From: a virus
Direction: 5' to 3' (one strand)
DNA length: 64,000 bases
IMG/VR virus record: IMGVR_UViG_3300045806_000063
Location: 32,001-96,000 of that record
Shown here: piece by piece, positions 12,877 to 31,080 of the stretch
Layout of the letters: each line of letters opens with the position of its first letter
Position numbering within the stretch: the stretch's first letter is position 1
Made by a program: the position numbers and the translations under genes
Notes under the pieces: model-generated
Databases searched by the model: none
What the model was told of the DNA's origin: nothing
What the model saw: only the letters and a program-made list of their open reading frames with translations

Positions 12877-15456
12877 TTATGGCCGTAAGTAGTATGGTAT
12901 CAGTATATCAGTTCCATTCAAGTTAAACACTAGGTAATTTTCTGGAGTAGCAGGAAGAGCAGCACTAGTACCAGCGGCAGCAGCCGTAGCAGTACTTGAA
13001 CCTATAGATAGTCCGCCGCCAGCCATTACTACTGTTCCTGATGGCATCTCTACGATTAAGTTTCTAGACAATGTAATCGTACCATCCACTGCTGGAACAT
13101 TTTGTACAATGGAGAGAATTGACGTATTCTCAGGCACTCCTAATCCTTTAACAGGGAGGTTATTAGTAAGACCAGTTACATCAGTTACAGTTATTACATT
13201 TTGTTCACTAGCGGCGTTAGAGTTCGTAGTTATGTTTATTGCCGCAGCTACTGGAGCCGTAGCAGATTGTACTACCACTTGATTTGAAAATAAGCCATTT
13301 CCTAATAAATATAACCATCCTTGTCCTGTAGTAGGACCGCCTCCTGCTGCTGCTAAGAGTACGTCGTAGGTAGGATTGCCACTACTATAGAATGCAATGG
13401 CTGGGTTACTAGCTACGCTATGAGACCCGATATTCATGGTGGCTCCAGCTCCATTTAGATTAAAAGCATTAACCCCTGCATAATCCAGAATGACTCCAGA
13501 ACTATTTACATTAAATGCTCCAGGTATAGTTATTCCCTCACAGACAATATTTCCGCTAGTAATAAATGAACCGTCAGTTAGGAATCCTGCAACTGTAGAA
13601 TTAGTTGATAAATCAACTATGTTAATAGCCCCACGACTTACCCCATCTACAACCTCAGTACCAAAGTCAATCCCAGCACCATGTGAGACTCCTGCTGATG
13701 AAGTAGCAGAACTTGAAATACGGGAAGTAACTACATTGTTATTATCGTACCATTCCATAGCATGATTTCTACCAAATGCAATTGCTGTTCCTCTACCGTT
13801 ATCAAAGCCATTAGTTCCAGCGATAGCAAAGTTAGAAAAGATGATACCTTTATCAAAATTAGAAGTAGGTGTAGGTTTTCCATCGTTAGAGTTAATATGG
13901 AGTGCGGCGGAGGCAGTTCCTACATTGTAATGGTCTGCTAATTCTCCGCCGGAAGCTAATGCTAAACCCACAGTCATTCCATTGGATATCATTGCAAATG
14001 GATAGATTGGTACAGTGTTACCCATATTGGCTATATCTAACTCTGCTACGAGTAGTCCTCCGCCTACGTATGGGTCTCTGACTGCGCTACCATAATAAAC
14101 CCATCCGTCTGGTGTTTCTCCAAGATAAGCATAGATGTTAGCTCCATCTGGAATTATAGCGGTCAGATCACTAGATAATGTAATTGATACGTCTGGCTCT
14201 ATTGCAATTATTTTAGCATTGCCTTGTATTCCAGGACCGCCCACACCTTGTCCAACTGATACCCCTACTGTGCTGGTAACTGCTATCACCGGCTGCCCTG
14301 AAGCTGCTTCAATGCTAGTAGTCAGAGTAATGTCACCACCCCCTTCGGCTCCTAAGTTATTATTCCAAAAGAAACCAGAATAAGGGATGTTAGCAGTACC
14401 TGGATTATCAGGAGCGCCAGCTGATTGAGATCCAGAAAATATACCAATTTGGTTAATAGAACCTAGGACATTAAAGGCGCTAGCTTCAGGAAGATATGCG
14501 TATGGTTTAATTGTTGATCCGCCGCTGGTATAACTGTAAGCAGTATCAACCCAGGTGTTAGTTAGAGCTCCAAACTTTACAATTTTATCATGCTGTGAAA
14601 ATCCCCCTGCACCAGTAAAGAATACCCCATCTTCAATTAACCAGGTAGTATTTGTTCCAGCTACCGCACTATTTAAATGATAAGTTCCTGGAGATACAAG
14701 AACAAAACTATTACTTACTGTACTATTAGCAAAAGCTGTATCTGATGCAGTTACGCCACTTGGGTCCGCTCCTCGTGTGATTGGATTAACAGTGTATGGA
14801 GTATTAGAATCCAGATTGCCTAACACTGAATTCAGATTAGCAATTTGTGTTTTAAGAGTGTTTATATCAGATACATTAGTTGCTTGGATGTTAGCTAGGT
14901 TATTAAGTTTATTTGCTAAAAACATACCTGACTGCACTGGAGCACGTCTACCAGTCAAAGCATCTTCTACCTTTTGTAAAGCTGTAGTAACAGCAGTGAC
15001 ACCATCCAGATCCATAATAGAGTGTGGATGATTTGGCACTGGAGGATATTGCTGAGGTCTGTTAACTGTATTAAAGAAATCTATATCGGTAGGAGGAACA
15101 GAAAGCAATTGCAGAATCTGCAATGCTAGAGCATCTGAGTTACCTTCTGGTCCACCTACTGCTTGATAAGTCAGAGCAACATTACCTGATAAGGTAGGGT
15201 TGATTATCTTTATCCCAGTATATGCAGGTCGTCCAGTTAAACGATTTACACTAGCACTGTAACCTATTAAGATGTAGTCTACTCCTAGTGTCAGAAGCGT
15301 GCTAGATGGCAATGATACTACCACCATCGAATCCCTATAGAACAGTCCTTGTTCAGTGATTATAGCAGCTCCTGGACTTAAAATAACCGCATGTATCTCA
15401 TTAGGAACTAGATTACTTATCGCAGCCCCTGTATTATCAAATGGTAATAAAATCAT
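12877..15456 (-). CDS. Tail fibre/tailspike: gp131-family anchor plus beta-helix-like receptor-binding region
   Basis: N-term LPFDNTG...N...E.H; TYQAVGG; pectate-lyase-type start VNPITRGADPSGVTASDTAF; C-term LPATPENYLVFNLNGTDILIPYY. Confidence 0.75.
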   Translation of the reverse strand: MILLPFDNTGAAISNLVPNEIHAVILSPGAAIITEQGLFYRDSMVVVSLPSSTLLTLGVDYILIGYSASVNRLTGRPAYTGIKIINPTLSGNVALTYQAVGGPEGNSDALALQILQLLSVPPTDIDFFNTVNRPQQYPPVPNHPHSIMDLDGVTAVTTALQKVEDALTGRRAPVQSGMFLANKLNNLANIQATNVSDINTLKTQIANLNSVLGNLDSNTPYTVNPITRGADPSGVTASDTAFANSTVSNSFVLVSPGTYHLNSAVAGTNTTWLIEDGVFFTGAGGFSQHDKIVKFGALTNTWVDTAYSYTSGGSTIKPYAYLPEASAFNVLGSINQIGIFSGSQSAGAPDNPGTANIPYSGFFWNNNLGAEGGGDITLTTSIEAASGQPVIAVTSTVGVSVGQGVGGPGIQGNAKIIAIEPDVSITLSSDLTAIIPDGANIYAYLGETPDGWVYYGSAVRDPYVGGGLLVAELDIANMGNTVPIYPFAMISNGMTVGLALASGGELADHYNVGTASAALHINSNDGKPTPTSNFDKGIIFSNFAIAGTNGFDNGRGTAIAFGRNHAMEWYDNNNVVTSRISSSATSSAGVSHGAGIDFGTEVVDGVSRGAINIVDLSTNSTVAGFLTDGSFITSGNIVCEGITIPGAFNVNSSGVILDYAGVNAFNLNGAGATMNIGSHSVASNPAIAFYSSGNPTYDVLLAAAGGGPTTGQGWLYLLGNGLFSNQVVVQSATAPVAAAINITTNSNAASEQNVITVTDVTGLTNNLPVKGLGVPENTSILSIVQNVPAVDGTITLSRNLIVEMPSGTVVMAGGGLSIGSSTATAAAAGTSAALPATPENYLVFNLNGTDILIPYYLRP

Positions 15457-15518
15457 TATACTCTCCCTTAGAGCAATTAATAAATCGTTAACATATTTAT
15501 TTCAAGCATTTTATACCT

Positions 15519-15554
15519 TATCATCCTCTGGCATATATATGCCAGAGGATGATA
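15519..15554. terminator. Perfect 36-bp palindrome
   Basis: tatcatcctctggcatat|atatgccagaggatgata. Confidence 0.75.
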
Positions 15555-15563
15555 TCATTAATA

Positions 15564-17639
15564 TTAAAAATCTCTATCTACAGACACGGTGTAACTCCAG
15601 TCGGCCATACTGGTAACGGCCGATGCAATGCCGGTTAGCTTATTTACCACTCCTAATATACTAGGAGGGCTGGATACATCAATTCTAGAAACATAAGCCG
15701 AATATGGACTGGTATAATCAGCTGCCACCTTAGATGCTTGTATGTAAGAGGTGTTTGTGGTGGCGGTAAACGTAAATACATAACCAGTTATACCAAACGA
15801 GATAGTGATAGCCCCACCAGATAGATCACTGGCATCTATGGCTGTACCTACCATAATTGTAGTTGAGTTACCTTCCGGTATTCCAGTTGCCGTAGTGTCA
15901 ATGGCAACTGTATAGGTTATTCCTGGGACGGTTGTTAAAGCTTGATAAATTGCAGTAGTTGATGTACTACCGGCGAATGAAGCGTCTAATCCTACAGCGT
16001 TTCCCGGCGCTGGGGACATTGATAGCATAGAGATATGGGCGGAAGTGGTATCTCCTGTTAATGCATAGTTCCAATTGAGTGGGAAGATTATACTACCGAC
16101 ACCTGTCGAATCAGTAAAGATATGATTCGCTACAAGGTTATTTGTTTCAGGACTTAAACCAGAAATATTAAATCCCACTTGTAAACTATCATACCATAAT
16201 GCTGCAGGTAGCCATATAGGGGTCAAGGTTGCTCCACTCAGTTGGGTATAACATAGTAGTGGATTACTGACAACATCACCAGAAGAGTAACCACTTTCAG
16301 CATTAATGCAAGTCATGGATAGTTGCACATTTAAATTGCTATATCCTAAATTATGAGTTAGCGTCGCTGTAACACTAGTTGGTTCCCCTACAACTGGCAC
16401 AGATTCAAATGTTCCAGCGATAGCATAAGTGAGTACAGAATCTATTGTAGTAGGACCTACTGTAACTTCACCTACACATATACTGGGTTTTGTCACGACT
16501 CCATCTAAATACCAGAGTCCAGAAGTTGCAACGTATAACATCTGTCCAGCGGTAGTGGTACTAGGGGTGCCTGACTTGATATAGATTGGGGATAAATCAA
16601 AGCTACTATATAACAAAGTCCCATCAGTCGCTATCTGAACAAAAAGATACTTATGAGAATTTAGATCAGTTAGAGTCCAAGCCGTATCCACATCCGCAGA
16701 TATTGTAATGACTTTATTAATGGCTCCGTGATAATTATAGCCATCGGGAATCGATAATGTTAAAGGAACTTCAGTACCATAAATACCAATATTAAGACTA
16801 GCTGATTTAAATAGAAAAGGCAGTCCTGTATTACTATCCCCTAGACCATTTAACACTATGCAGCGTTTATTGGAACTAGAGTAAGGGTTTGCACCTAATA
16901 ATCCACTATCAGTTATCGCTGTATTTAATGCCGTAACAGTAGTGACAGCAGTTGATAATTCATCTACCGTTAACCCTGCCTGAGCCATGGACACTAACCA
17001 GTTTTGAAAACTACTATTTAACACACTGTAAGTAGATTCAAGATTCTGATATGCAGTAGCTAACTCTCTAACTACTCCATTCGGAGCTGTCATATTGTTA
17101 CCAATCGCTTCTAACTGTTTACCTAATACGAACACGTTAGCAGTTTGTGACAACAGATCTGTGATTTTTTGATTAGCTGTTACAGCCCCATCACCAACCA
17201 GACCTTGCCAGATTGTTAAATTGGCTGTATCAAAACTACCTAATGCTAAAATCTCTTCTAACAGTACAGTGTCTTTCACTCCACCTACGGCTTGGTAAGT
17301 AACGGTAACACTAGTCCATGCAGTTCTATTTTGTAATAGAAAGTAGGTATATGCTTCAAGTCCACACAGATTAAAGATAATAGCAAATACTGGAGACAAC
17401 ATATAGTCAGCGCCATAGACTAATTCGCGAGTAGCCCCACCTACTGTCTCTACGCCAGTTATAGTTAAGCCTAAAGCATAGAAAGGGCCGTTAGCAGTAA
17501 ATATAGCTGCAGATCCAGATACTGGCGTAGTTTCATCTACTACCTTATTAGCTACATTCGTTCCAGTTGAATCAAACGTGTATGTAATAGTACCAGCCAT
17601 TACTCCACTGGCAAAATACCCATCTAAAATATCACTCAT
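15564..17639 (-). CDS. Tail fibre protein: gp131-family anchor plus C-terminal carbohydrate-binding-like beta sandwich
   Basis: TYTFDSTG...N...E; GPFY; TYQAVGG; C-term IYQALTTVPGITYTV...FTFTAT pattern. Confidence 0.7.
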   Translation of the reverse strand: MSDILDGYFASGVMAGTITYTFDSTGTNVANKVVDETTPVSGSAAIFTANGPFYALGLTITGVETVGGATRELVYGADYMLSPVFAIIFNLCGLEAYTYFLLQNRTAWTSVTVTYQAVGGVKDTVLLEEILALGSFDTANLTIWQGLVGDGAVTANQKITDLLSQTANVFVLGKQLEAIGNNMTAPNGVVRELATAYQNLESTYSVLNSSFQNWLVSMAQAGLTVDELSTAVTTVTALNTAITDSGLLGANPYSSSNKRCIVLNGLGDSNTGLPFLFKSASLNIGIYGTEVPLTLSIPDGYNYHGAINKVITISADVDTAWTLTDLNSHKYLFVQIATDGTLLYSSFDLSPIYIKSGTPSTTTAGQMLYVATSGLWYLDGVVTKPSICVGEVTVGPTTIDSVLTYAIAGTFESVPVVGEPTSVTATLTHNLGYSNLNVQLSMTCINAESGYSSGDVVSNPLLCYTQLSGATLTPIWLPAALWYDSLQVGFNISGLSPETNNLVANHIFTDSTGVGSIIFPLNWNYALTGDTTSAHISMLSMSPAPGNAVGLDASFAGSTSTTAIYQALTTVPGITYTVAIDTTATGIPEGNSTTIMVGTAIDASDLSGGAITISFGITGYVFTFTATTNTSYIQASKVAADYTSPYSAYVSRIDVSSPPSILGVVNKLTGIASAVTSMADWSYTVSVDRDF

Positions 17640-18656: not shown

Positions 18657-18686
18657 ATATAAAGGTAACTAATGTTACCTTTATAT
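18657..18686. terminator. Hairpin, 13-bp arms, 4-nt loop
   Basis: atataaaggtaac-taat-gttacctttatat. Confidence 0.65.
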
Positions 18687-18705: not shown

Positions 18706-19947
18706 TTACGGAGCAGTAGATCCATTGTAATTGATTGGTATTGTAATATTTATACCATTCATTACAGCGCTAATATAACCAGTATGCTCCGTGGCTGGGG
18801 CCGTAGTGTAAGCATCTGATAGTACCAGGAATCCACCAGCCCCATTACCGATATGAACAGCTCCGCTATTATCTACCTGGAACAGGGCTGAAGTTGTATC
18901 GTTTCTAAGCAGTGTTAAGAAATTACCAGAAGGACTTGAATCAGAACTCCTTACGCCAACATACATGTCTCCTTCAGCAGGGGTTCCAGTTTGTGGAATT
19001 TGTGAAACTAAGATCCCGGTGGTAAAAGTATTCAAGTAAGTTCCAGTAGGGCTATTAGTTGGACCAATAACTACCCCAGTTGCACTAGAGGCAATTGTAA
19101 TTCCATTAATGGCATTCTTGATATTTACACCCGTGGTAAATGGACGAGTACCATCAATGCCAATTGCTTGAGCCGAACTAACGGCTCCGGTTCCATAAAT
19201 GTGGACTGGAGCATCATTAGTAGTAGCAGTGCTGTTAGTTGTATGAACTATATCGATGCCATAGAGTTTACCAGTAGTACCAGTGTCTGACTCTGAGAGA
19301 ATCTTTACTGCAGAAAGCCCGCCATATGTAGGTGAGTTTACTGCACTCTCTAAATGTGCACTGTAGACCACAACGCTATCCCACCCAGTCTTTCCCGCTA
19401 GCTGGGTAAAGTCATAAGCTACTCCAGTAAAACCGCCAGCAGTAGGACGTACCCCGGAAGGTGCAAAGTTAGCCAAAGTTGATAATGGTTGGATGTTAAC
19501 AGCTAACAAATCCCTAGGCCATGTAGTGCTCGTGAATGTGGCAGTGGGATCGATATCAAAGATTACATTGTCAGCAGCAAATGTAGATTCAGGAGTAGCA
19601 TTAATAACCCAACTACCAGCAGGTATTCGAATATTCCCTCCCCAAGTACCAAGTCCTCCAACTGCATTCAGCAAAGCTCCATCTGAATAACATCCACTTA
19701 ACCCAGTAGTGCAATTTGGTATACCGCCCCAGTCGATAATACTCGTACCGTATTTAAAATTAGCTTCATCTACAGCCCCTGCGGTAGCTGTAAAGTTAGT
19801 GTTAAGCTGACTGATAGTCAGTCCAGGTCCACCGGATGATACAGTATGAATCTCGGGTGACACGTAAGTTGGAGCGGCAGTAACAACTGCTGATGTAAAC
19901 GTCAGTGCAGCTACCATTAATAGTCTTGAAATTTTACTATTCTTCAT
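18706..19947 (-). CDS. Tailspike-like beta-rich protein with Sec-type signal peptide (paralogue of 28903)
   Basis: RBS GAGGA; MKNSKISRLLMVAALTFTSAVVTA leader; GPGLTISQLNTNF; SIIDWGGIP...SDGALL pectate-lyase-like start. Confidence 0.65.
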   Translation of the reverse strand: MKNSKISRLLMVAALTFTSAVVTAAPTYVSPEIHTVSSGGPGLTISQLNTNFTATAGAVDEANFKYGTSIIDWGGIPNCTTGLSGCYSDGALLNAVGGLGTWGGNIRIPAGSWVINATPESTFAADNVIFDIDPTATFTSTTWPRDLLAVNIQPLSTLANFAPSGVRPTAGGFTGVAYDFTQLAGKTGWDSVVVYSAHLESAVNSPTYGGLSAVKILSESDTGTTGKLYGIDIVHTTNSTATTNDAPVHIYGTGAVSSAQAIGIDGTRPFTTGVNIKNAINGITIASSATGVVIGPTNSPTGTYLNTFTTGILVSQIPQTGTPAEGDMYVGVRSSDSSPSGNFLTLLRNDTTSALFQVDNSGAVHIGNGAGGFLVLSDAYTTAPATEHTGYISAVMNGINITIPINYNGSTAP

Positions 19948-19964
19948 TTTTTATTTCCTCTTTA

Positions 19965-20927
19965 TTAAAAGCCAATGGCATAATAGGTTACTCTTCTACT
20001 TCCTGTATAACTAGGGTCTAAAGTTATACTCACGTTTACATTGTAATCCTTAGGGGCAGACCATCTGATGGTGTCAAGGGTAGGAGGGACTTCTGGATCA
20101 TCTGCAGCTATAGTGCAGAAGACACTTAAGCATTTATTTGGAAAGTTCTTCCCTACAAACAAAAGCGTGTTAGGGATATTAACATTCTTAAATTTGTAAC
20201 TACCATGCTTGATAGTAAAACCATTTAAAGGTATCTCGTAATGGTCTATGTTTGGAACTGGAGTTACACCTGGCAAACGATTTTCTAAGTTTAAAATCAT
20301 TTCAGCAAATGCACTATTATTACTGTTTACTGAGGACATCAGGTTCAGTAGTGGTAACATTGTAGAGTTAGCCCAGAAACCAGATAAGCCACCAATATCA
20401 TCAATAGAGACATCTTGTCTAGTCCTTACTGCAGTCGATAAGTACATTAAGGCCTGGCAGATGATAGGGTATTCAGTCATGGCACTAGCCATTAATGAAT
20501 GGGGAGTTGGTGGAAAGCTAGTAGGAGCAGTACTCCAGTCAATAGCCATATACTCATCAACTGTATCTAACAGTCCATCTGCTATTATTGTAGCTTTATC
20601 AACCACATATTCACCACCCACGGTTTGGTAGTTTATATAGTAGCCTCCTACTGAATTACGAGGAAGCATGTTAATGGCACCATATACATCCAGACCGATA
20701 GCATCACTAGCTTGCGCCCAGTGTAATGATAAGGTGTAATGAACGTTTTCAGTTAAAGTAGCTCCGTTACTGGCGACTATACTTAACCCTTTTCTATAAA
20801 AGGGCGATGCATTAGGTGAGAATAAGTATGATTTTGATGGATCTGTCGCAGTGATCGTATGATACTCGTTAGGTATGAAGTTATCAGGCAGCTCGCCTGT
20901 AGGATCAAAAATATACGTACCTGGCAT
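19965..20927 (-). CDS. Tail fibre/baseplate protein (gp131-135 family) with short C-terminal beta domain
   Basis: YIFDPTGELPDNFIPNEYH; SPFY; NYQTVGG; FPPTPH; C-term IKHGSYKF...FPNKCLSV...YYAIGF. Confidence 0.75.
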   Translation of the reverse strand: MPGTYIFDPTGELPDNFIPNEYHTITATDPSKSYLFSPNASPFYRKGLSIVASNGATLTENVHYTLSLHWAQASDAIGLDVYGAINMLPRNSVGGYYINYQTVGGEYVVDKATIIADGLLDTVDEYMAIDWSTAPTSFPPTPHSLMASAMTEYPIICQALMYLSTAVRTRQDVSIDDIGGLSGFWANSTMLPLLNLMSSVNSNNSAFAEMILNLENRLPGVTPVPNIDHYEIPLNGFTIKHGSYKFKNVNIPNTLLFVGKNFPNKCLSVFCTIAADDPEVPPTLDTIRWSAPKDYNVNVSITLDPSYTGSRRVTYYAIGF

Positions 20928-20980
20928 GGTTGTTCCTCAGTTTAAAATTTAACATATGATGATTTCGTAGGGGTATATAA

Positions 20981-22174
20981 ATGATTAATGAAATCTTAGC
21001 CAGAAAGGCTAACCAGTGGATTGCACTGAACACAGATGACACAATTGCTACAGCTCTTTCTTATAATAGGGTATTTATTTCCATAACTGATCCTGTAACA
21101 CTTCTGCTATCCCAATACGATCTATTACAGTTCTCAACTATTAATTCAGTTAGTTCAAGTTTAACTATTCTTGAATTTATTACAGCTTTTAACACAGCTT
21201 ATCCTCAGTCTCAGACAAGGACACTATCCTTAGCATCTCAGAAGGTTATTAACTACTACACTCTATGGGACTATGGGTTAGTAGCCAATCGTATTAACCC
21301 TTCTAATCTAGCACTTTCTCCTAATCCAAATAATTTACCTGACCTCAGCATTACAATAAGTAATAATCTCTGGGGTAATGTTAATGGATTCCAAAATAAT
21401 CTATTGTTCTTAATTAATGGAGTTATAGCTCCTGAGACATATCTACCTAGTTCAATTCTGATACGACACGGTTCTTTACTAATTGATACTAATCCGCAGC
21501 AGACTATTGGAGTGTTAGACTTTACTGCATTAGGTGGTTATACCAGACAGTACTTTACAGCTAGTGATATCGCTCAGTTTTCCAGCACTAACACATCTGC
21601 AACTTACCACATTACACTAGCTACTCCTTTAACCGGATCTCCTGTATTAGTATTAAACGGTAGAGTTCATCTATTTGAAGATATTTTTAAAGTAATAAAC
21701 CCTACCACCTTAGCAGTTACACTAAGTTATGAAATGGTAGTTAAGGAAGCGTTTACAGCAGAACCATCTTTACTGAACTGGATGAGTAGAGTCGATGCAG
21801 AGTCAACAGGGTTCAACGTAGGAACCTTTAATGCTATTAATTACCTCACTCAACTTAGCTCCTTCCTTATAACTGTAAATGGAGCATTAAGTTATACAGA
21901 CGTTCCAGTTATAGATACAGGGTTAGGAAATGCTAGATTGACTTTTTCTGACATTACAGATATTATATTTCTTTCTGATGGAACAATCGGTTACTATGTG
22001 GTAAATGAAATGCTTTCAGATTTCAATACAGTTTTGTCTGTATCAGACCCACTGACTAGCAATCTACTTGCTGATACCGAAGTTATCACTAGCAATGCAG
22101 TAGTCTCCTCACAGCCTTTAAACTCAATCAAAAAATCTAACCCTATTCAGTGCAAACACCTTTATATATTGTAA
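20981..22174 (+). CDS. Virion structural protein (phiKZ-like conserved, directly upstream of RNase H)
   Basis: 397 aa; LFLINGV, IGVLDF, PVLVLNGRVH pattern; synteny. Confidence 0.6.
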   Translation: MINEILARKANQWIALNTDDTIATALSYNRVFISITDPVTLLLSQYDLLQFSTINSVSSSLTILEFITAFNTAYPQSQTRTLSLASQKVINYYTLWDYGLVANRINPSNLALSPNPNNLPDLSITISNNLWGNVNGFQNNLLFLINGVIAPETYLPSSILIRHGSLLIDTNPQQTIGVLDFTALGGYTRQYFTASDIAQFSSTNTSATYHITLATPLTGSPVLVLNGRVHLFEDIFKVINPTTLAVTLSYEMVVKEAFTAEPSLLNWMSRVDAESTGFNVGTFNAINYLTQLSSFLITVNGALSYTDVPVIDTGLGNARLTFSDITDIIFLSDGTIGYYVVNEMLSDFNTVLSVSDPLTSNLLADTEVITSNAVVSSQPLNSIKKSNPIQCKHLYIL

Positions 22175-22221
22175 ATTATGACTATTAAACATCTTGTAGT
22201 CAATACACCAACGGATTTATT

Positions 22222-24045
22222 ATGTCTACTATCGTAAAAATTACATGGTCTAAAAAAGAAGGATATGAATGTAGCTCCGCTGGAGATATGAGATTTTCAG
22301 CATTTGGCGCTATCATGCCTGATGGAAGAACCTTAGAGCAACATTATCAGTGCGATGTTAAAGGATATGAACCAGGTGGTACTAACTGGAAATTAGGTAA
22401 AGGAAAACCACCACTTGATAAATCTACAAAGCCATTTCCTGCGTATCTAAATCTTTGGAAAATCTGGGCTAACTTACCTGGTAACATTGAGTTATTAGAA
22501 GAACTATATTTGTTAGCTTTGAAAAATGGTAACAGGTTAAGTGATAAGTTTGCAACCGGTCCGGTAAATCAAGCTCACACTTTATCAGTTATCATAAATG
22601 ACCTAAAGAAAGAAGTCAAGACTAAGATTACCGCCACCATCTATACTGATGGTTCCGCTAATCCCAATCCAGGCCCTGCAGGTTATGGCTTTGCTGCAAC
22701 TGATTCAACTGGTAAGAAATACTTAGGCCATGGCCCTACAGCACTACATTCAACCAATAACGTATCTGAGTTATTAGGGGTAGCGTACGGTATTTTGCAG
22801 TTAAGAAATAACATACCAACCTTATCGAACATTAATTTATTTTCAGACAGTAAATATGTTTTAAACAATCTGAAGTATTTTGATAACTGGAAAGCAAATG
22901 GATTTCTTAAAAGTGATGGACAGCCTGTAGCTAACAAAGAAGTATGGGAGTATCTTGACAGTGTGTTAACCTCGGTTAAGTCTTCTGGGGTTACAATTAA
23001 GATGGACTGGGTGAAAGGACACAATGGTAATGAAGGTAATGAGTTAGCTGATAAACAAGCTGACCTAGGAAGACTTGTAGCTTTAGAGAATAAAGTAGAT
23101 TTGAAGTTTGGTTTAACTGAATTGCATAACTTAACTGTTATACCGTTTATTAAGCTAACTCCGACTGATAAAGTTGCAGAAGCTGTCAACCCTCTGATGT
23201 GTGCTAAACGATGGTTCTTCATTACAGGATCTCCTGATCATATTCAGGATAGACCATATTACTTCGGAGCTAATTACGAAGATAAGAAAGATGAAAATAA
23301 TCGTAACTTAGGTAAACGAACCCCAGATACCATGTACACGATGTTAAAGCCTAAAGAGAGAATCAAACCATTAGATGATCTCCGAGCTGAATTTGAGTAT
23401 AAGTATAATGATGGCGCCTACCCTATTATCTGCGATCTAAAAAAGATAACGACCAGTAAAGTGTGGACTGACTTATCCGCTGGAGTACGTGAGAATGTAG
23501 AATTCTTAGGAGATCTCTTAGTCACCAAAAGTATTGCGGGGAGTGAGTCTGTTAGTTTAGGAAATTTACATTTCCCACCTAAGTTAGCTTTTAGAGTACC
23601 AAATGAAATAACACGAGCTAATGACTATATAACTGACTATGAAACACATGCTCACCAGAACTTGTCTCCACAAGAGTGTTCAATACTCTTCTTCGATATA
23701 ACTGATAAGATATACAGTTCTGATGCTAAAGGTAAAGTCTCTATGCAGAAAGAATTTACTGTCAGTGAGAAGTATATTGATATCGCACTTTCAATACCGT
23801 ACTATGAAAAGGGAGAAGTGCGTCTACCTGTTACTGATGATGTAATTCGTTTAACTGCGAACTTATCTATGCCTGGTCGTACTTGTTTTTCATCACTGAT
23901 TAAAGTATCTAAAGAGAAACCTAAAGTGACACTAATAGTTTACGATAGCTGTGAGCGTAGTTGTAGGGTGGCTGTGATCGTTGAATTTAATGGGGATATA
24001 GCTTGCTATTTTGCAAGTGATTCCGACTTCATAATAAAGAGGTAA
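22222..24045 (+). CDS. rnhA: Ribonuclease HI (phiKZ gp155-like) with an extra N-terminal NADAR-like domain
   Basis: YTDGS, TNNVSEL, FSDSKY, WVKGH.GNEGNELAD give the DEDD catalytic set; about 130-aa N-terminal domain with ECSS..D.RFSAF...DGRTLEQHYQCDVK. Confidence 0.88.
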   Translation: MSTIVKITWSKKEGYECSSAGDMRFSAFGAIMPDGRTLEQHYQCDVKGYEPGGTNWKLGKGKPPLDKSTKPFPAYLNLWKIWANLPGNIELLEELYLLALKNGNRLSDKFATGPVNQAHTLSVIINDLKKEVKTKITATIYTDGSANPNPGPAGYGFAATDSTGKKYLGHGPTALHSTNNVSELLGVAYGILQLRNNIPTLSNINLFSDSKYVLNNLKYFDNWKANGFLKSDGQPVANKEVWEYLDSVLTSVKSSGVTIKMDWVKGHNGNEGNELADKQADLGRLVALENKVDLKFGLTELHNLTVIPFIKLTPTDKVAEAVNPLMCAKRWFFITGSPDHIQDRPYYFGANYEDKKDENNRNLGKRTPDTMYTMLKPKERIKPLDDLRAEFEYKYNDGAYPIICDLKKITTSKVWTDLSAGVRENVEFLGDLLVTKSIAGSESVSLGNLHFPPKLAFRVPNEITRANDYITDYETHAHQNLSPQECSILFFDITDKIYSSDAKGKVSMQKEFTVSEKYIDIALSIPYYEKGEVRLPVTDDVIRLTANLSMPGRTCFSSLIKVSKEKPKVTLIVYDSCERSCRVAVIVEFNGDIACYFASDSDFIIKR

Positions 24046-24048
24046 TAA

Positions 24049-25302
24049 ATGTCTACAATATATGGTTTTCTGCAAGATAACTATTTTCTTAATGGTTCAA
24101 GCACACCTAATCCGGTGGGACAGATCAGTAATAAGAGTCTTACCTACGCTCCTACTGGTATATTTACAGCGGCTAACAGTGCCGCTGACTTATATATTTT
24201 CAATCCTAATCTGGTATCAGCTTTAGTTTCATCTACGGCATTAGAGCAGTTAGCTACTGCTCTAAGCGTGATTCCTAATTATCCTGTTGGACTATCATCA
24301 GTCCTGAATGATATTGTCGGTATTCTTGGTGCAGGGTTTACGAATATATCGATTGGAGCATTAGTATATAACCCAACCGATGCTAAGAACTATCCATCCT
24401 CTATCTCTTTTACATATACAAATGGAGGGGTAAGTCAGAATTACCAGATATGGCTTGCTGATACGAATTTTCAAAATGAATACCCTAGTGGGGTTATAAC
24501 TGTACTAACCCCAATAGCCAATCTATCTCACCTATACAGTAACTTCGCATTATGTAATGCCGCTATTGGAGCTTTAACTCCACTGAGTATGTCACAGTTA
24601 ATTGAAGCTCAGCAAGAAGCAGCTCCTCTAGAGAAAACTGTTATCTACTTTACAACTTTCCGGGTATTTAATGTTACAAACTCTAGTCAGTGGTTTGACT
24701 TACCAGTAGCGTATATTTGCAATGGTGGCACTTTATTTTGTAACACTGCTAGTTGTAAGGCTGCCTTCATTAATGCCTTACTAACAGAGTCTCTCTTCAC
24801 TCTACAGCAATGGGAAGTGATCATTCCGACACTGGTACCAACTAACAAGTTTTACGTTATACCTAATTTATCAAATGAAGCAATAGCTGTAGGGACTCCA
24901 ATCCAAAGTCCAACCATAAATCTCAGTACTACTTCATTAGCTACTCTACAGACTACTTACTTTCCAGATTATGGATCGTCAGTAGATGCCTTAATTGATT
25001 ATACGGTAGCTCTTTATAACTCAATAGGGTTATTCATATTACCGTGTAACTCAAATCTAACATCGGCTACCTTCCATGATACATTTGGTGATTACTTTTT
25101 AGTATCAACTAATGACGTAATCATTAACAGGATGTCAGTAAACACTCAACAGATGGTTACTCTCTTAACTAATATGCTTGTTTTAATTACCACTACCAAT
25201 GTCTTGGTAACATTACCGGCTGGATACTCTATTGAAGTCAGAAATGGTTTTAACTATCTAGTAGGTAATGTGGGTACCACTACATTATCTGTTCTTATCT
25301 AA
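24049..25302 (+). CDS. Virion structural protein (phiKZ gp157-like)
   Basis: 417 aa; IYGF...VGQISNKSLTY and QIWLAD..FQNEY motifs; synteny after RNase H. Confidence 0.62.
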   Translation: MSTIYGFLQDNYFLNGSSTPNPVGQISNKSLTYAPTGIFTAANSAADLYIFNPNLVSALVSSTALEQLATALSVIPNYPVGLSSVLNDIVGILGAGFTNISIGALVYNPTDAKNYPSSISFTYTNGGVSQNYQIWLADTNFQNEYPSGVITVLTPIANLSHLYSNFALCNAAIGALTPLSMSQLIEAQQEAAPLEKTVIYFTTFRVFNVTNSSQWFDLPVAYICNGGTLFCNTASCKAAFINALLTESLFTLQQWEVIIPTLVPTNKFYVIPNLSNEAIAVGTPIQSPTINLSTTSLATLQTTYFPDYGSSVDALIDYTVALYNSIGLFILPCNSNLTSATFHDTFGDYFLVSTNDVIINRMSVNTQQMVTLLTNMLVLITTTNVLVTLPAGYSIEVRNGFNYLVGNVGTTTLSVLI

Positions 25303-25314
25303 GGAGAACTTTTT

Positions 25315-25947
25315 ATGTCATTAGCTTTAGCTTTAGGGAGTTATGGCTTATTTACAGCTTTATCTCCATTTGCTATTACTCAAGTAAATTATCAGGTAAC
25401 TCAACTCAATCTAATAAGTGCACTAGTTTCAAATGGAGTTGATGTATTTAATAGCTTTTATGCACCTGCGGGATTACTTCAAGCACAGTTTACTACAGAT
25501 CTGACAAATGGCGCTGCTATAGTGACGCTAGAGTCGGAAAATGGACCAACAGTCAATATCCCCTCAAGTTATCTTTCCACCTCACCAGTGGAGCCTGCGG
25601 TAGCTTATCATGGAGCAATACTATTTGTAGACTTAGGCGATTTACCTGATGCAGTTTCTTTAGATCAGCTAACCTCTGACATAACTGTTATGGCTGAAGG
25701 TGCATTAGGAGTAACTGCTACAGTAACCACAGCGGTTAAACCTGCTAAGAAGCTTTATAGCTATGCAGAATCTTTAGTATTAGAAGCAGAAAGACAAGTA
25801 GCCTTAACAACTTATCTCTCATTTTACTCTGGCAAGGTTGCAGCTGATGCAGAATTAGCTGCAGTAAAACTACAGCTTGGTAAATATGCAGATATAATAA
25901 AATCACAAATAACCCAGATAGAAGCATTGAAAGCTCAACTGCCTTAA
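25315..25947 (+). CDS. Conserved phiKZ-like protein, probably virion-associated
   Basis: 210 aa; PF, IVTLES, IPSSY, DLGDLP, LGV pattern; C-terminal coiled coil. Confidence 0.6.
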   Translation: MSLALALGSYGLFTALSPFAITQVNYQVTQLNLISALVSNGVDVFNSFYAPAGLLQAQFTTDLTNGAAIVTLESENGPTVNIPSSYLSTSPVEPAVAYHGAILFVDLGDLPDAVSLDQLTSDITVMAEGALGVTATVTTAVKPAKKLYSYAESLVLEAERQVALTTYLSFYSGKVAADAELAAVKLQLGKYADIIKSQITQIEALKAQLP

Positions 25948-25956
25948 ACTCACCGT

Positions 25957-25996
25957 ATATATTACTCCTTCGCATTAATGCGAAGGAGTAATATAT
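25957..25996. terminator. Perfect 40-bp palindrome
   Basis: atatattactccttcgcatt|aatgcgaaggagtaatatat. Confidence 0.8.
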
Positions 25997-26046
25997 TTAT
26001 TTAGACTTCACCATATATACAGTGTATTTAATTAGAGGAATTAACA

Positions 26047-26880
26047 ATGACAACGACATATAGTAAAGAACAACAAGCTGCGATATTTAAGGGAGTTTCA
26101 TTAGTACAGAAAGCGTATAACAATACACTGTTCACAGATATGAAGTTTGAAATAGATAAGAATTATGGAGACTATTATCATTCCGATACTTCAGTAGCTA
26201 TTCCATTACGAGAAACGATGGGAGCAGGCATTATAACTCATGAAGCAGACGGAAGTACTACTGTAGATATAGTTTACAGAGGCACTGAATTTAACACACC
26301 TTTTGATGTACTGACTGACTTGACAGATGTTTATACTTATTTAAATCATGAAAACTTTAAACCATGTATACTTCGTCGAGATTTAAAACCAGGCGTTCAT
26401 GCAGGCGGTCATAAGAGATGGGCAGATTTAATTAGCGATGGTAAGTTTTACAAAAGTTTAAATATGCATTTACGTGGGCATAAATCACCTGACACGTTAA
26501 GAGTGTATGGGCATTCTATGGGATGCTGGCCGGCAATATTAACAGCACTTGACATTTTTGCATTAAAGGACGCGGTGGCAATACTACCAGGTAAAGTATT
26601 CAATATTGAATGTCACCTATACGCCCCGCCTACTTTCTGCGATTCCGCATTCCTGCAACTAATTAAGTCCATTTTACTACAAATTAGATTTAAGATAACC
26701 TTTATTGTTATAGCTCTTGAACATGACATAGTGCCAGATCTTCCATTGGATTTTAAACAAGCATACCCAGTTACCAGGATACCTAGTGAAGGATGGATTA
26801 TGGAAGAATTGAAACATCATTCAATTGATAGTTATCCAGAAGCACTGAAGAAATACTTTGAAATAGAATTAACATCTTAA
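26047..26880 (+). CDS. Class 3 lipase / alpha-beta hydrolase
   Basis: IVYRGT, GHSMG nucleophile elbow, HDIVP (Asp), HHSIDSY (His); RBS GAGGA. Confidence 0.85.
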   Translation: MTTTYSKEQQAAIFKGVSLVQKAYNNTLFTDMKFEIDKNYGDYYHSDTSVAIPLRETMGAGIITHEADGSTTVDIVYRGTEFNTPFDVLTDLTDVYTYLNHENFKPCILRRDLKPGVHAGGHKRWADLISDGKFYKSLNMHLRGHKSPDTLRVYGHSMGCWPAILTALDIFALKDAVAILPGKVFNIECHLYAPPTFCDSAFLQLIKSILLQIRFKITFIVIALEHDIVPDLPLDFKQAYPVTRIPSEGWIMEELKHHSIDSYPEALKKYFEIELTS

Positions 26881-26952
26881 ATTTAATTATAGTTACTAGT
26901 TCTATAATGTGACTGATAATAGTCATCACTTAACCTCACATAGGAAATACAA

Positions 26953-27420
26953 ATGTCTTCACATTCTGCAAAACAACTGGTCTCGGCCAAATTCTCATTT
27001 ATTGTTTCATTAGTGGTAGCTGCAGCAGCATCCTTTACTCAACTTGACGGTACAATCCTGGCAGTTCAACCAACTGATACTTTTGAATCTTTTGTCCAAA
27101 AACTGCAAGCTTCCGTAACCGTATTGCCACAACCACTGCAAGCTTATCTGGATGATGATTCCGGCACTCTGGTTACTGTACCTTATGGCGCTACTGTTGG
27201 TGACGTGGTCGTTTGGGCCGATGATGCCATCCCAGCAGTTGCTGCAGCCGGTACCACTTTCTTTACTGCAGCTGAATGGGCTACTCTGATTGAACCAGGT
27301 TCTGAAGTTGATTCAGCTGCTGTCGCTGCAGTAGCTGACACTGCACCTGTGGCCGATACCGCTCCTGTGTCTGAAGGTTTTGACACTGCACCTGTGGCCG
27401 ATACCGCCCCTGTAGCTTAA
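26953..27420 (+). CDS. Hypothetical Ala-rich protein ending in DTAPV repeats
   Basis: 155 aa; RBS AGGA; 27-bp duplication at 27336-27362 and 27381-27407. Confidence 0.7.
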   Translation: MSSHSAKQLVSAKFSFIVSLVVAAAASFTQLDGTILAVQPTDTFESFVQKLQASVTVLPQPLQAYLDDDSGTLVTVPYGATVGDVVVWADDAIPAVAAAGTTFFTAAEWATLIEPGSEVDSAAVAAVADTAPVADTAPVSEGFDTAPVADTAPVA

Positions 27421-27435
27421 TCTTTATTCGGCCAG

Positions 27436-27765
27436 GTGACTTCACTTAGCACCAAAACTATTACCCCCAGCATTAATGCTGGGGGTAATACCCAAGGTAC
27501 CTCAACTGCTTCTCCAAATGTAGATCAAAATAATATAACCGAAGTAGGTCAGTTAGCTACGGTAGCAGTTAATGCAGCAACTGATGCTGGTACTGGTAAT
27601 ATTATTGGTGCAGGCTTTAATGGCTTTGCTGCATTAGTGATAGCTGCTGAATTAGTTGAGCAGAATATAAGAGTAATGGAAGCGCATCATGAAATTGAAA
27701 AAACAATTAATAATGAGACTAACGATCAGCTTGATGCTGATCTTGCAAGGTTGCGGGAGCTTTAA
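27436..27765 (+). CDS. Putative inner-membrane spanin (Rz-like); start uncertain
   Basis: Hydrophobic IIGAGFNGFAALVIAA then a coiled-coil tail; the 3' end is overlapped by a lipoprotein ORF. Confidence 0.45.
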   Translation: MTSLSTKTITPSINAGGNTQGTSTASPNVDQNNITEVGQLATVAVNAATDAGTGNIIGAGFNGFAALVIAAELVEQNIRVMEAHHEIEKTINNETNDQLDADLARLREL

Positions 27766-27898
27766 TTGTAACAACGGTTTTATCATTCCTTCTAAGAGTG
27801 TTACAGACGGAATGCTGATTGACGAAAAGAGAAGCTTAGACATTCGGGCTCAGGAATTTAAAAATGACTGCCCTTCTGGAAAATTTATCACCTTATAA
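27713..27898 (+). CDS. Lipoprotein, putative outer-membrane spanin (Rz1-like); alternative start at 27689
   Basis: MRLTISLMLILQGC lipobox; small, Cys-containing; overlaps the upstream gene in another frame. Confidence 0.55.
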   Translation: MRLTISLMLILQGCGSFNCNNGFIIPSKSVTDGMLIDEKRSLDIRAQEFKNDCPSGKFITL

Positions 27899-27908
27899 GG
27901 AAAACATA

Positions 27909-28262
27909 ATGAACAAAATTACTACTGTATTATTTTTCACCGTCATTGCATTTATGATGATGGCTTGTTCAACTACACCAGTCACACCTCAGGTGATTGA
28001 ACAGACCGTTCAGAATGCAGCAAATGACTTTTGTGCATTAGCCCCTACAGTCACTAAGGTGGTTATCACAGTTGAACAAGCCACTGGCGTTGATGCTAAA
28101 ACTCAAAATGCTACTACTAATGCAGCTACTGCTACGGCAGTGGGTTGTACTGCCGTGAACCTCGTATCTACTTTGTCCGGTACTCCTACTACATCTACCA
28201 CTCTGGTAGCTCCATCGTCTGGTACTATTACTGCTGCAGCTCCTGTAACTGTAAAGCCGTAA
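27909..28262 (+). CDS. Thr/Ala-rich lipoprotein (start moved to 27909)
   Basis: RBS AAGGA; MNKITTVLFFTVIAFMMMAC lipobox. Confidence 0.75.
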   Translation: MNKITTVLFFTVIAFMMMACSTTPVTPQVIEQTVQNAANDFCALAPTVTKVVITVEQATGVDAKTQNATTNAATATAVGCTAVNLVSTLSGTPTTSTTLVAPSSGTITAAAPVTVKP

Positions 28263-28750
28263 TGTCTATCGCCTCGGAGATGGTTCCATATATTGGAACT
28301 AAGGCAGTTAGAGCAGTTCCCATGACCCTAGGTGCATATGAGTTATATCGTGGTGACGGTTTTAAGGTAGATACTCACTACGACGATCCTTTAGCTGCTG
28401 GATATTTGGTTGAGTACGATAATACAAGTAAACCTAATCATACTTCCCATATTGGGTATATTTCTTGGTCACCTAAATCTGTATTTGAGGCAGCTTATTC
28501 CCCCATCTTTGATACTGTGGGATATAGTTGGAGTGCAGCTATCCGACTCATAACTAAATTCCCTAACGAACTTATCATGTTTCACACTGATATGGGTGAA
28601 TTAGAACACATCAAAGCAGCACCTAGTTTAAACAATGGAGCTGTAAGATTCATTCATGCCAAAGGAGTGCATTGGGAATACTATTTAGACATTCCGTTAT
28701 CTGATTTGGCTAGAGTAGATTGGACTGTTAAAAATCGTAAACATTTGTAA
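28262..28750 (+). CDS. DUF2829/Tad2-like protein (start moved to 28262, TAATG coupling)
   Basis: YIGTK.V.A.PMT.G.Y...GYLVEY...NH...GYISWSPK.VFE.AY N-domain; C-term YSWSAAI and PLSDLARVDWTV. Confidence 0.7.
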   Translation: MSIASEMVPYIGTKAVRAVPMTLGAYELYRGDGFKVDTHYDDPLAAGYLVEYDNTSKPNHTSHIGYISWSPKSVFEAAYSPIFDTVGYSWSAAIRLITKFPNELIMFHTDMGELEHIKAAPSLNNGAVRFIHAKGVHWEYYLDIPLSDLARVDWTVKNRKHL

Positions 28751-28758
28751 TATTACTT

Positions 28759-28796
28759 AGGGGTATCAGGCACTCATGTGAGTGCCTGATACCCCT
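28759..28796. terminator. Hairpin, 18-bp arms, 2-nt centre
   Basis: aggggtatcaggcactca-tg-tgagtgcctgatacccct. Confidence 0.78.
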
Positions 28797-28902
28797 GCTT
28801 TCGTAATTATATGTTAATAATCTCATCGGTTAATACCATTCTAAGTACCCTAGTTCGCTGAATATTAATGGGTAATTTTTACATCGACAGATAAGGAATA
28901 AA

Positions 28903-30306
28903 ATGAAAACTATTATACAGGCAATTGGGATAAGCTTACTCCTATTTTCTATTTCAGTATTGGCTACTGGACCATTAACTACTACTCCCACACTTCGTAC
29001 TGTAACGATCGGTGGCGGTGGAGCTGAAACCTTCGGTCCTGGTTTAACAACTGATCAAATTAATGCAAACTTTAACAATATAGCAGCAGTGGCGAATGAT
29101 GCCAATGTTAAAGTGATTAGTGTCACTGACTATGGAGCTATTCCTAATTCTATATCTGACCAATACGGTGCCTTTGCTGCGGCAGTTTCTGCAGTAACTA
29201 CTTCTGGTACTCCTCTGTATGGTGCATCTATTCAAGTACCTTCAGGTAACTATGTATTGTCAGCTGCACCTAACTGGAGCTCAAATAGTATCCAGTGGGT
29301 ATTTGCAAATCATGTTACATTTTCTGGAGTAGGGGCTTCGAGTTTTCCTCGTGCTAATACTAACCCCACTACGATGCCGGTATCTGGAATCTTTAGTCAG
29401 TTTTATGATTCAGTGACTTCACCTAGTGGTGGCGGACCATCTGCATTGACTTCTGAAATATTTCAACCTACCACTGCTACCGGTAATTACATTGCTGGGT
29501 ATTTTGGAGCACAGGGATCGTCTACTGTTAATACTGCATATGTCGGAGGGGTATGGGGACTGAATGTAGTCGCTAACTCACTGGCAGGTATGACTGGAAC
29601 TATAACTGGAGTTGAGATAGATGTTAATACTACTTCTGCGGTATTAACTAACTCTTCTGGATTATCCATACAGGGACTTGGAACGTATAATGCCAGTGAT
29701 GCCATAAAAATAGCTAGAAGCGACTCTAGCTTATGGACATACGGTTTAGATATGTACAATGTTGTAAATGGCATTCTAATCAATCCAACTACTTTAGGTT
29801 TAACTATCGGCTCTCCAGCAGGGGGACAGGGTTCATTAGCTCCGCAGGCTATTACCGTAGAACAGATAAGCAATAATGCAATGAGTGATATACTATTTGC
29901 AAATCGCGCAACTGACGTAGCCCCAGTGGGTAGTTTTTTACGGTTAGCTAATGCTGCTAATAATTTAAATTTATTTAAAGTGGATATAAGTGGTAACTTA
30001 TATGCTGGTAGATTGGCAAGTATCGGAGGACCTACTCCTGCACTGACTAGTTGTGGAACTAGCCCTAGTGTGACTACCGGTAGTGTTGCTAACATGGGTC
30101 AAATAACTTTTGGCACTGGCACCCCTACTAGCTGTACGTTAACATTCCCTGTTGCTTTTGATAGTTCTGCTTTCTGTACAGCAACTCCTGCTTCAGCTTA
30201 TACCGGGACTTATTATTTTAGTACTTCTTCAGCTACAGGGTTTACACTAACTTTAGGTACCGGAACAAATTCAGTTGTATTCAATTACATCTGTTTTGGT
30301 AATTGA
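28903..30306 (+). CDS. Tailspike-like beta-helix protein with Sec-type signal peptide (paralogue of 18706)
   Basis: RBS AAGGA; MKTIIQAIGISLLLFSISVLA leader; GPGLTTDQINANF; VISVTDYGAIPNSISDQYGAFAAA...IQVPSGNY pectate-lyase-3-type motif. Confidence 0.72.
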   Translation: MKTIIQAIGISLLLFSISVLATGPLTTTPTLRTVTIGGGGAETFGPGLTTDQINANFNNIAAVANDANVKVISVTDYGAIPNSISDQYGAFAAAVSAVTTSGTPLYGASIQVPSGNYVLSAAPNWSSNSIQWVFANHVTFSGVGASSFPRANTNPTTMPVSGIFSQFYDSVTSPSGGGPSALTSEIFQPTTATGNYIAGYFGAQGSSTVNTAYVGGVWGLNVVANSLAGMTGTITGVEIDVNTTSAVLTNSSGLSIQGLGTYNASDAIKIARSDSSLWTYGLDMYNVVNGILINPTTLGLTIGSPAGGQGSLAPQAITVEQISNNAMSDILFANRATDVAPVGSFLRLANAANNLNLFKVDISGNLYAGRLASIGGPTPALTSCGTSPSVTTGSVANMGQITFGTGTPTSCTLTFPVAFDSSAFCTATPASAYTGTYYFSTSSATGFTLTLGTGTNSVVFNYICFGN

Positions 30307-30318
30307 TAGGAGATTACA

Positions 30319-31080
30319 ATGACCGATTACAGTAGTGATGGGTTTAGCGGCGATGGTTATTTTAAGAATGATGCAATACGTCCCAATGTAACTACCGATA
30401 ACCCGATATTACCAACTGGTTATTTGGCTCCTGGAGTTAATTATCTTCAAGAGCCTACCACCATAGTTTATGACCCAACAGGAGCTTTACTAGGAAACCT
30501 TGTTTTCGGTGAAACTACCAGCCCTGTTACAGAACCCGATATATGGACATTAGAAGGTCCTTTCTATCAGCAAGGTTTAACAGTCACAGGAGTCTTATCT
30601 TCCGGTGGAGCGCCTCAGGAATTGGTTCCTTTCCTTGATTATACCTTCTCTCCTTTATATGGTAAGATGACTGATCAAATTGGACTACCTATTTACAGTT
30701 ACTTATTGTTAACAAATACTTCAAACTGGGCTAGTGTCACCACCACTTATCAAGCTGTAGGTTGTGCAAGGGACGCTATTTTATTACAAGAGATAGTAGA
30801 CCTTGGAACTTTTGATAGAACTAATTTAACAGTCTGGGAAGGGTTAGTAGGTGATAGCATTATTACCACGGATGACATCTTACCTGATGTATTAACAAAT
30901 GGCGAAACTGTTTATATACTGTCAAAGAAATTAAACACGTTAGCTGCTCAGTTACAAGGGCCTAACGTATATAAATCAGGGCTAGAGGCTCTGAAATTAG
31001 ATGTGACTAATGAACTATCTATTCTGCAATCTACAGTTAATAGTTTATCAGCTACAGTGTCGCAATATTTAGTGGTGTAA
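30319..31080 (+). CDS. Fibre anchor-domain-only protein, paralogue of the 15564 N-terminus
   Basis: YDPTG, GPFYQQGLTVTG, TYQAVG, LLQEI..LGTFD..NLT.W.GLVGD align by eye with 15564; ends in a coiled coil. Confidence 0.72.
   Translation: MTDYSSDGFSGDGYFKNDAIRPNVTTDNPILPTGYLAPGVNYLQEPTTIVYDPTGALLGNLVFGETTSPVTEPDIWTLEGPFYQQGLTVTGVLSSGGAPQELVPFLDYTFSPLYGKMTDQIGLPIYSYLLLTNTSNWASVTTTYQAVGCARDAILLQEIVDLGTFDRTNLTVWEGLVGDSIITTDDILPDVLTNGETVYILSKKLNTLAAQLQGPNVYKSGLEALKLDVTNELSILQSTVNSLSATVSQYLVV

Follow-up and report, generated by a model that had tools for sequence, protein, structure and literature searches.

Two paralogous genes with tailspike-like products, P0001 and P0002, lie among the fibre genes of an uncultured giant phage and begin with Sec-type leaders, while the baseplate anchor of the neighbouring fibres is absent from both. 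They were found in a 64,000-nucleotide stretch of DNA (the window) spanning bases 32001-96000 of the IMG/VR record IMGVR_UViG_3300045806_000063, which is 181,108 bp long and has direct terminal repeats. Both proteins are likely exported and processed, and we tentatively rank first the reading in which they act as free proteins on the envelope of the infected cell. The phiKZ-like giant phages such as Goslar have about 24-26% identity to conserved virion proteins of this phage. A megablast search of the region against 50,697 phage records found no close cultured relative at the DNA level, and tblastn against the same records found no cultured-phage homologue of P0001, of P0002 or of the C-terminal domain of P0002 alone. 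The relatives of both paralogues, searched exhaustively with HMMER and a word index, were few and metagenomic without exception, and a locus search with the paralogue-1 subfamily gave no match in viral contigs. The two genes and their leaders are as follows.

18706..19947, minus strand: paralogue 1, P0001, 413 amino acids (aa); leader, N-module with a helix, beta-helix cap motif, strand-rich body and LFQVDNSG neck
19876-19947, minus strand: P0001 leader, 24 residues, Sec-type with n-, h- and c-regions
28903..30306, plus strand: paralogue 2, P0002, 467 aa; leader, N-module, PF12708-like cap, body, LFKVDISG neck and four-cysteine C-terminal domain
28903-28965, plus strand: P0002 leader, 21 residues, Sec-type with n-, h- and c-regions

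The two paralogues carry Sec-type leaders

Both genes have a good, purine-rich ribosome-binding site at normal distance from the annotated ATG, in line with the original prediction; it is GAGGA located 9 nucleotides (nt) upstream in P0001 and AAGGA located 5 nt upstream in P0002. The leader of P0001 consists of MKNSKISR, 12 uncharged hydrophobic residues and VVTA/AP with a predicted cleavage after residue 24, and that of P0002 consists of MKTI, a hydrophobic core and SVLA/TG with a predicted cleavage after residue 21. The n/h/c leaders ending in VTA and VLA were seen at both N-termini as predicted, and they are conserved in kind across the family. Judged by a hand-written rule and by inspection, both have the charged n-region, the uncharged h-region and the small residues at positions -3 and -1 that are expected for Sec and signal peptidase I. 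A lipoprotein or Tat signal was ruled out, as the leaders contain neither a lipobox cysteine nor a twin arginine. A leaderless isoform made from a nearby internal start was also ruled out, the next methionine being residue 328 in P0001 and residue 158 in P0002.

The P0001 and P0002 proteins showed 30% identity over 337 aa (BLASTP, E 3e-30) and are the only two copies of this family in the genome. The segment GPGLTISQLNTNF / GPGLTTDQINANF with the pattern GPGLT..Q.N.NF was found in both, and so was the motif LFQVDNSG in P0001 and LFKVDISG in P0002; the segment and the motif LF(Q/K)VD.SG recur among the homologues. Both had been noticed before in the two sequences, and inspection together with the BLASTP paralogy confirmed them.

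The signal-peptide calls were made with the hand-written rule and not with a trained predictor such as SignalP. Among 128 ORFs (open reading frames) of at least 150 aa in the genome, four passed this rule, namely P0001, P0002, an SLT endolysin and one membrane protein. The third of these is encoded next to the fibre cluster.

11783..12382, plus strand: SLT lytic transglycosylase, 199 aa; classical leader with MK, a leucine-rich core and LWA/S

This transglycosylase is probably a Sec-exported endolysin and therefore Sec would already be used by this phage for one envelope enzyme. The leader was present in seven of the eight homologues of the body, where its length and sequence vary and its anatomy remains constant. 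Free variation in which only charge, hydrophobic core and the small-x-small pattern are kept agrees with a signal peptide and disagrees with an interface helix that is buried. The eighth homologue, P0013, is a leaderless protein of 923 aa in which a conventional fibre N-terminus precedes two tandem body copies, and it is located at 4403-7174 of contig L036 within a structural module containing a 757-aa protein with an SLT domain. The same body therefore also occurs in the format of a classical fibre, and in this one sense the proposal that spike genes had been repurposed for export holds.

The cysteine content was also compared. The mature parts of the 12 leader-bearing relatives examined contain 0, 0, 2, 2, 2, 4, 4, 4, 4, 6, 8 and 12 cysteines, an even number in every case, and the two in P0001 are at positions 79 and 86. 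An odd number was found in 5 of 10 leaderless proteins of the fibre cluster of this phage. The comparison uses related sequences and is not a clean statistic; the even counts are nevertheless what would be expected if the cysteines were paired as disulfides in an oxidising compartment. On sequence grounds, export and signal-peptidase cleavage of both paralogues are likely.

The paralogues lack the baseplate anchor and adjoin short anchor proteins

An anchor domain of the phrog_2163 type was detected by jackhmmer in exactly four proteins of the 181-kb genome. P0001 and P0002 are not among them, in keeping with the original prediction that they lack the anchor of the neighbouring fibres, and neither had a match in PHROGs. 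The leader and the anchor domain never occur together in one protein of this genome. The four anchor-bearing proteins and one further element are listed below.

12877..17639, minus strand: two long anchor-bearing fibres of 859 aa and 691 aa, leaderless; the contrast within the genome
19965..20927, minus strand: P0018, short anchor-bearing protein, 320 aa; phrog_2163 anchor (residues 5-178) and a 140-residue C-terminal domain
30319..31080, plus strand: P0019, short anchor-bearing protein, 253 aa; 48-residue N-terminal extension followed by the anchor (residues 49-148)
18657..18686, minus strand: terminator-like hairpin of 13 pairs with a T-run, directly 3' of P0001, from a consensus scan

The P0018 gene ends 17 nt upstream of P0001, and the P0019 gene starts 12 nt after P0002. 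The hairpin would delimit a two-gene unit of P0018 and P0001. A scan for sigma-70 promoters returned 41 sites where 43.8 are expected by chance, and it is not relevant to a phage that has its own polymerases.

The same locus was found in five related giant-phage contig families, one of them represented by a 255-kb contig, and in these the paralogue-1 slot comes directly after the short anchor protein. The shared layout has a DUF7194 gene, a gene for about 435 aa, an RNase H gene and a gene for about 400 aa on one strand, and the short anchor protein, the leader-bearing protein and further fibres on the opposite strand. In these clusters the leader is present only on the paralogue-1 homologue. 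In all pairwise comparisons, both the short anchor protein and its leader-bearing neighbour aligned from end to end. Within the anchor protein, identity was 41-65% in the N-terminal part and 25-45% in the C-terminal part, and the leader-bearing protein reached 24-45%, while the next fibre after the pair was often related over 60-110 residues only. Paralogue 1 therefore belongs to the vertically inherited core of the fibre operon, and on these alignments it is neither a sporadic add-on nor an often-swapped host-range module. Co-variation of the P0018 C-terminal domain with P0001 was also considered in six phages, namely this one and five relatives; it merely tracks the phylogeny and does not discriminate between explanations.

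A cassette and a 21-residue peptide are shared with a short-tailed phage

A relative of P0002, named P0004, is encoded on the 35-kb contig L003 of an unrelated short-tailed phage, which carries genes for a terminase, an HK97-type capsid and SU10-type adaptors. The leader and N-module of P0002 and P0004 are 62% identical and the C-terminal domain is common to both, while their bodies differ. The DNA similarity at the 3' side does not stop with the gene: it crosses the stop codon and the spacer and takes in the 21 initial codons of the gene that follows. The resulting peptide, with the pattern M.DYSSDGFS.DG.F..D.IR and 15 of 21 residues identical, is the sole part common to the two downstream proteins.

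30319-30381 of the window, plus strand (start of P0019), and 11462-11524 of L003: 21-residue peptide, right after the homologous leader-bearing gene in both

Beyond this peptide, P0019 continues into the giant-phage anchor and the protein of L003 into an SU10-adaptor-like sequence. Among the 21 codons, six differ synonymously only and six alter the residue, a pattern that suggests purifying selection. The DYSSDGFS.DG.F motif was not found elsewhere among the sequences compared. The exported protein may dock through this peptide, or recombination may have carried the peptide along as a tolerated hitch-hiker.

In small viral contigs, the leader-bearing gene with the four-cysteine domain is usually the last one before the lysis genes, and in many cases it has another gene with a leader, or one for a lipase-like protein, at its side. 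In contig L009, a conventional block of baseplate and fibre genes comes first and the leader-bearing gene is located between a lipase-like gene and the endolysin. Such a position before the lysis genes or near a lipase fits a terminal spike and an accessory of envelope or lysis function alike. A second, smaller leader-bearing gene was also observed directly 3' of the four-cysteine gene in L004 (11296-11790), L005 (8304-8837), L007 (5392-5625) and L026 (8267-9076).

A beta-helix cap motif and a C-terminal domain with four invariant cysteines

The PF12708 profile matched residues 72-121 of P0002 with E 3.4e-4 and 20.9 bits, which is under the 27-bit cut-off and covers profile positions 2-48 only, and it gave no match to P0001. 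A precomputed PF12708 match exists for the homologue P0003. A profile built from nine homologues matched the cap region of solved right-handed beta-helix proteins (E 1.6e-7 to 1e-4), and PfbA, a pectate lyase, AlgE4 and the Sf6 tailspike were among the PDB proteins matched, in the cap only. The AlphaFold2 models made from alignments of nine rows reached a predicted local distance difference test score (pLDDT) of 46 and 43. A Foldseek search with the better model gave no match at E<=0.001, its weak list being mostly beta-helix enzymes, and the neighbours in the ESM Atlas belonged to beta-helix families with template modelling scores mostly below 0.5. From the cap matches, the strand-rich models and these weak structural neighbours, the body is probably a beta-helix, which is not established. 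The predicted beta-helix of the pectate-lyase type is thus upheld at its cap, where the profile matches lie, and not past it, where the fold could not be modelled reliably.

The C-terminus of P0002 forms a separate domain.

30025-30303, plus strand: P0002 C-terminal domain, about 85 residues, four invariant cysteines

The four cysteines are invariant across 21 aligned sequences of this domain. In 23 IMG/VR loci it forms the C-terminus of proteins with 170 to 1517 residues, and it is likewise C-terminal in long, fibre-like proteins of one alphaproteobacterial metagenome-assembled genome (MAG; L033) and of two Bdellovibrionales MAGs (L034 and L035). A leader was seen, by the rule or by eye, on about 16 of 18 distinct viral proteins with this domain, plus P0005-7 and P0020-23, and on both MAG proteins with a complete 5' end, which are the alphaproteobacterial one and that of L035. 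In several four-cysteine proteins, the leader begins after an internal methionine of the longest ORF. The leaderless relative P0024 has kept the first two cysteines and the last two are absent. Sequence searches with the domain matched nothing in the PDB and no Pfam family significantly; Gp53-like_C gave E 0.006-0.04 in 3 of the 21 members, under its cut-off. A relationship with the C-terminal domain of P0018 was not detectable.

Another type of ending, PAGY..IY..G...YKIPYY, was observed at the C-termini of P0001 and P0009-P0014, for example at 18706-18790 of the window, and P0001 itself ends in a tail of GY, nine residues and IPINY. This ending replaces the four-cysteine domain in most relatives of paralogue 1 and is also present in the leaderless P0013.

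Possible roles of the paralogues

Our preferred explanation is that both paralogues are tailspike-like proteins of the infected cell that stay free of the particle and act on the envelope. We hold it tentatively, as a proposal with slightly less than an even chance, because the virion anchor is absent from them, other complete fibres are present in the phage, and exported non-virion genes are known in fibre regions. The lipase-like and endolysin genes beside the leader-bearing genes of other phages, and the Lipase_3, membrane-protein and lipoprotein genes 5' of P0002 in the window, also count for it, and WceF and the Bdellovibrio MAT fibres, both described below, are precedents for the export of tailspike- or fibre-like proteins. 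The paralogues would be made late together with the fibre genes, Sec would carry them over the inner membrane, and signal peptidase I would cut after VTA or VLA. Folding of the mature proteins would take place in the periplasm, where disulfides can form between paired cysteines. From inside, they would bind a surface or periplasmic glycan, which they might also cut, and they would spill at lysis. The roles suggested earlier, namely stripping of the receptor, a decoy function and capsule clearing at lysis, are candidates only. As a consequence, infected cells and debris might stop capturing progeny and superinfecting phage, or the exit of particles through the envelope might be eased.

Several results weigh against this explanation. 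The AlphaFold2 models are too poor for a claim on the fold. In the nine-sequence alignment, D76 and S245 are the only invariant polar residues, and a pair of conserved acidic residues, as expected of a glycosidase or lyase site common to the family, was not found. The word depolymerase is therefore unsupported and binding alone is possible, so that from the predicted exported depolymerases the export is retained as likely from the leaders and the enzymatic part is not. Furthermore, a host-specific enzyme that destroys receptors would be expected to be swapped like the next fibre, and paralogue 1 is inherited vertically over its whole length in the five contig families. Finally, there are two short anchor proteins and two paralogues, and each paralogue adjoins one of them; this pairing with P0018 and P0019, like the 21-residue peptide that was transferred along with P0002, is more in line with docking on the virion.

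The docking alternative, which we consider possible at a clearly lower probability, supposes that the spikes are oxidised in the periplasm and captured by the short anchor proteins mounted on the baseplate when holin action or lysis joins the compartments. The numbers speak for it, as the short anchor proteins are exactly two, one directly beside each paralogue, and so do the full-length conservation of the pair of anchor gene and leader gene in five contig families and the hairpin that closes the pair here. P0002 and P0004 with the same ends and a different body show the usual modularity of virion spikes, the conserved 21-residue peptide was co-transferred while the next gene has a different virion anchor in each phage, and in small phages the family is found at the final structural position, ahead of the lysis genes. 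On the other side, we know of no tailed phage that adds parts after export, and the literature search was likewise empty. Late assembly would be kinetically hard on dilution at lysis. Sec-exported endolysins, of which this phage appears to have one, often accompany small-hole holins. The other complete fibres count here as well, and adjacency equally fits non-virion genes such as lom. In its most specific form, which is somewhat more doubtful, a part of the receptor-binding apparatus would be finished outside the cytoplasm, with two Sec-exported and oxidised spikes clipped onto short baseplate adaptors at the opening of the envelope and with a 21-residue handle that could be passed from one phage to another, as between a giant myovirus and one with a short tail.

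Two further explanations appear improbable. The exported proteins might be displayed on the infected cell as adhesins or as a shield, in the manner of the mosaic adhesive trimer (MAT) fibres of Bdellovibrio, which have a signal peptide, a conserved beta-rich N-terminal domain of about 130 aa and swapped disulfide tips and are mounted on the cell surface (PMC10769870). The present family likewise combines a predicted signal peptide with a swapped, disulfide-type C-terminal tip, and the four-cysteine domain ends fibre-like proteins of the two Bdellovibrionales MAGs, with a leader in the one having a complete 5' end (L035). However, a route across the outer membrane is not evident, the MAT fibres are cellular, and the N-module here has about 45 residues against 130, a comparison made from the published description of the MAT fibres. 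The phage also looks strictly lytic, which leaves a short time window. The other explanation, about equally improbable, is that export does not take place and the hydrophobic N-terminus is buried in a partner or serves as a membrane tether of ordinary fibres assembled in the cytoplasm. The leader call made with a home-made rule and the embedding of the genes in fibre operons would agree with it. However, a buried helix should conserve its sequence, which these leaders do not, and the even cysteine counts and the invariant quartet are unexpected in a cytoplasmic protein.

Comparison with known systems

In the textbook view, the particles of tailed phages are assembled wholly in the cytoplasm and their spikes have no export signals. 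A full-text literature search gave no account of fibre- or spike-like phage proteins with Sec leaders, which agrees with the earlier suggestion of an undescribed system. The virion tailspikes P22 gp9 and Sf6 gp14 are alike in the DYGA-type cap (the family profile matches the Sf6 tailspike with E 1e-4), in the conserved ends with a swapped body and in the location among fibre genes. They are unlike in that the Sec leader here replaces the domain that binds the head or baseplate, and the trimer and the fold of the body are only presumed here. The free phage depolymerases released at lysis are similarly spike-like and not bound to the particle, although an enzymatic activity is unsupported for the present proteins. 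To our knowledge, the known soluble depolymerases arise by excess synthesis or from internal starts and have no signal peptide.

The Llp and Cor proteins of T5 are exported, are encoded beside receptor-binding genes and act on the envelope. Similarly, the lambda Lom is an exported non-virion protein that is encoded in the tail-fibre region and acts on the envelope of the infected cell (PMC12309495). P0001 and P0002 resemble all three in that they are phage genes, encode export signals and lie among or beside the genes for receptor binding. However, Lom, Llp and Cor are small beta-barrels or lipoproteins, whereas the present proteins are fibre- or spike-like with 40-50 kDa; they have no lipobox, and at 413 and 467 aa they are not of the small size of the Llp and Cor type. 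The WceF of Pantoea stewartii is a tailspike-like beta-helix with a cleavable Tat signal that acts on the exopolysaccharide of its own producer (PMC7949094). It was a weak structural neighbour of the poor model (E 0.13, not significant), and its gene resides on a bacterial chromosome and encodes a Tat signal, as against phage genes with Sec-type leaders; the likeness lies in the tailspike-like build and the export signal. Signal peptides are also present in Porphyromonas phage genes of unknown function (PMC10367356), and the nearest literature further includes endolysins exported by Sec or by a signal-arrest-release (SAR) signal.

Spike-like phage proteins with Sec leaders and disulfide-type cysteines form a conserved class for which there are two possible meanings. 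If they act as free factors, phages would deploy spike-derived proteins in the envelope of the dying cell as a new layer of receptor management or exit; if they dock, some parts for host recognition would join the particle after export. Either reading would alter the annotation of such genes, which are now called tail fibres or left blank, as well as depolymerase mining and host-range engineering. The genome is a clean internal control, with leaderless anchored fibres beside anchorless leader-bearing proteins. The case contributes a giant myovirus with this control of anchor versus leader, a conserved adaptor-like partner gene and a candidate docking peptide.

Genes upstream of P0002

The region 5' of P0002 in the window (26047-28262, plus strand) contains a Lipase_3 gene and genes for a membrane protein and lipoproteins. 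Within it, an ORF with a lipobox (27689-27898, LQGC) lies in another frame and is followed by a lipoprotein from an internal methionine at 27909 (MMAC). The ORF just 5' of P0002 (28262-28750, plus strand) matched phrog_872, a family of unknown function, with E 4e-19. The combination of Lipase_3 and lipoprotein recurs in L031, in the contig of P0014 and in L003, and may represent a putative lysis or envelope module.

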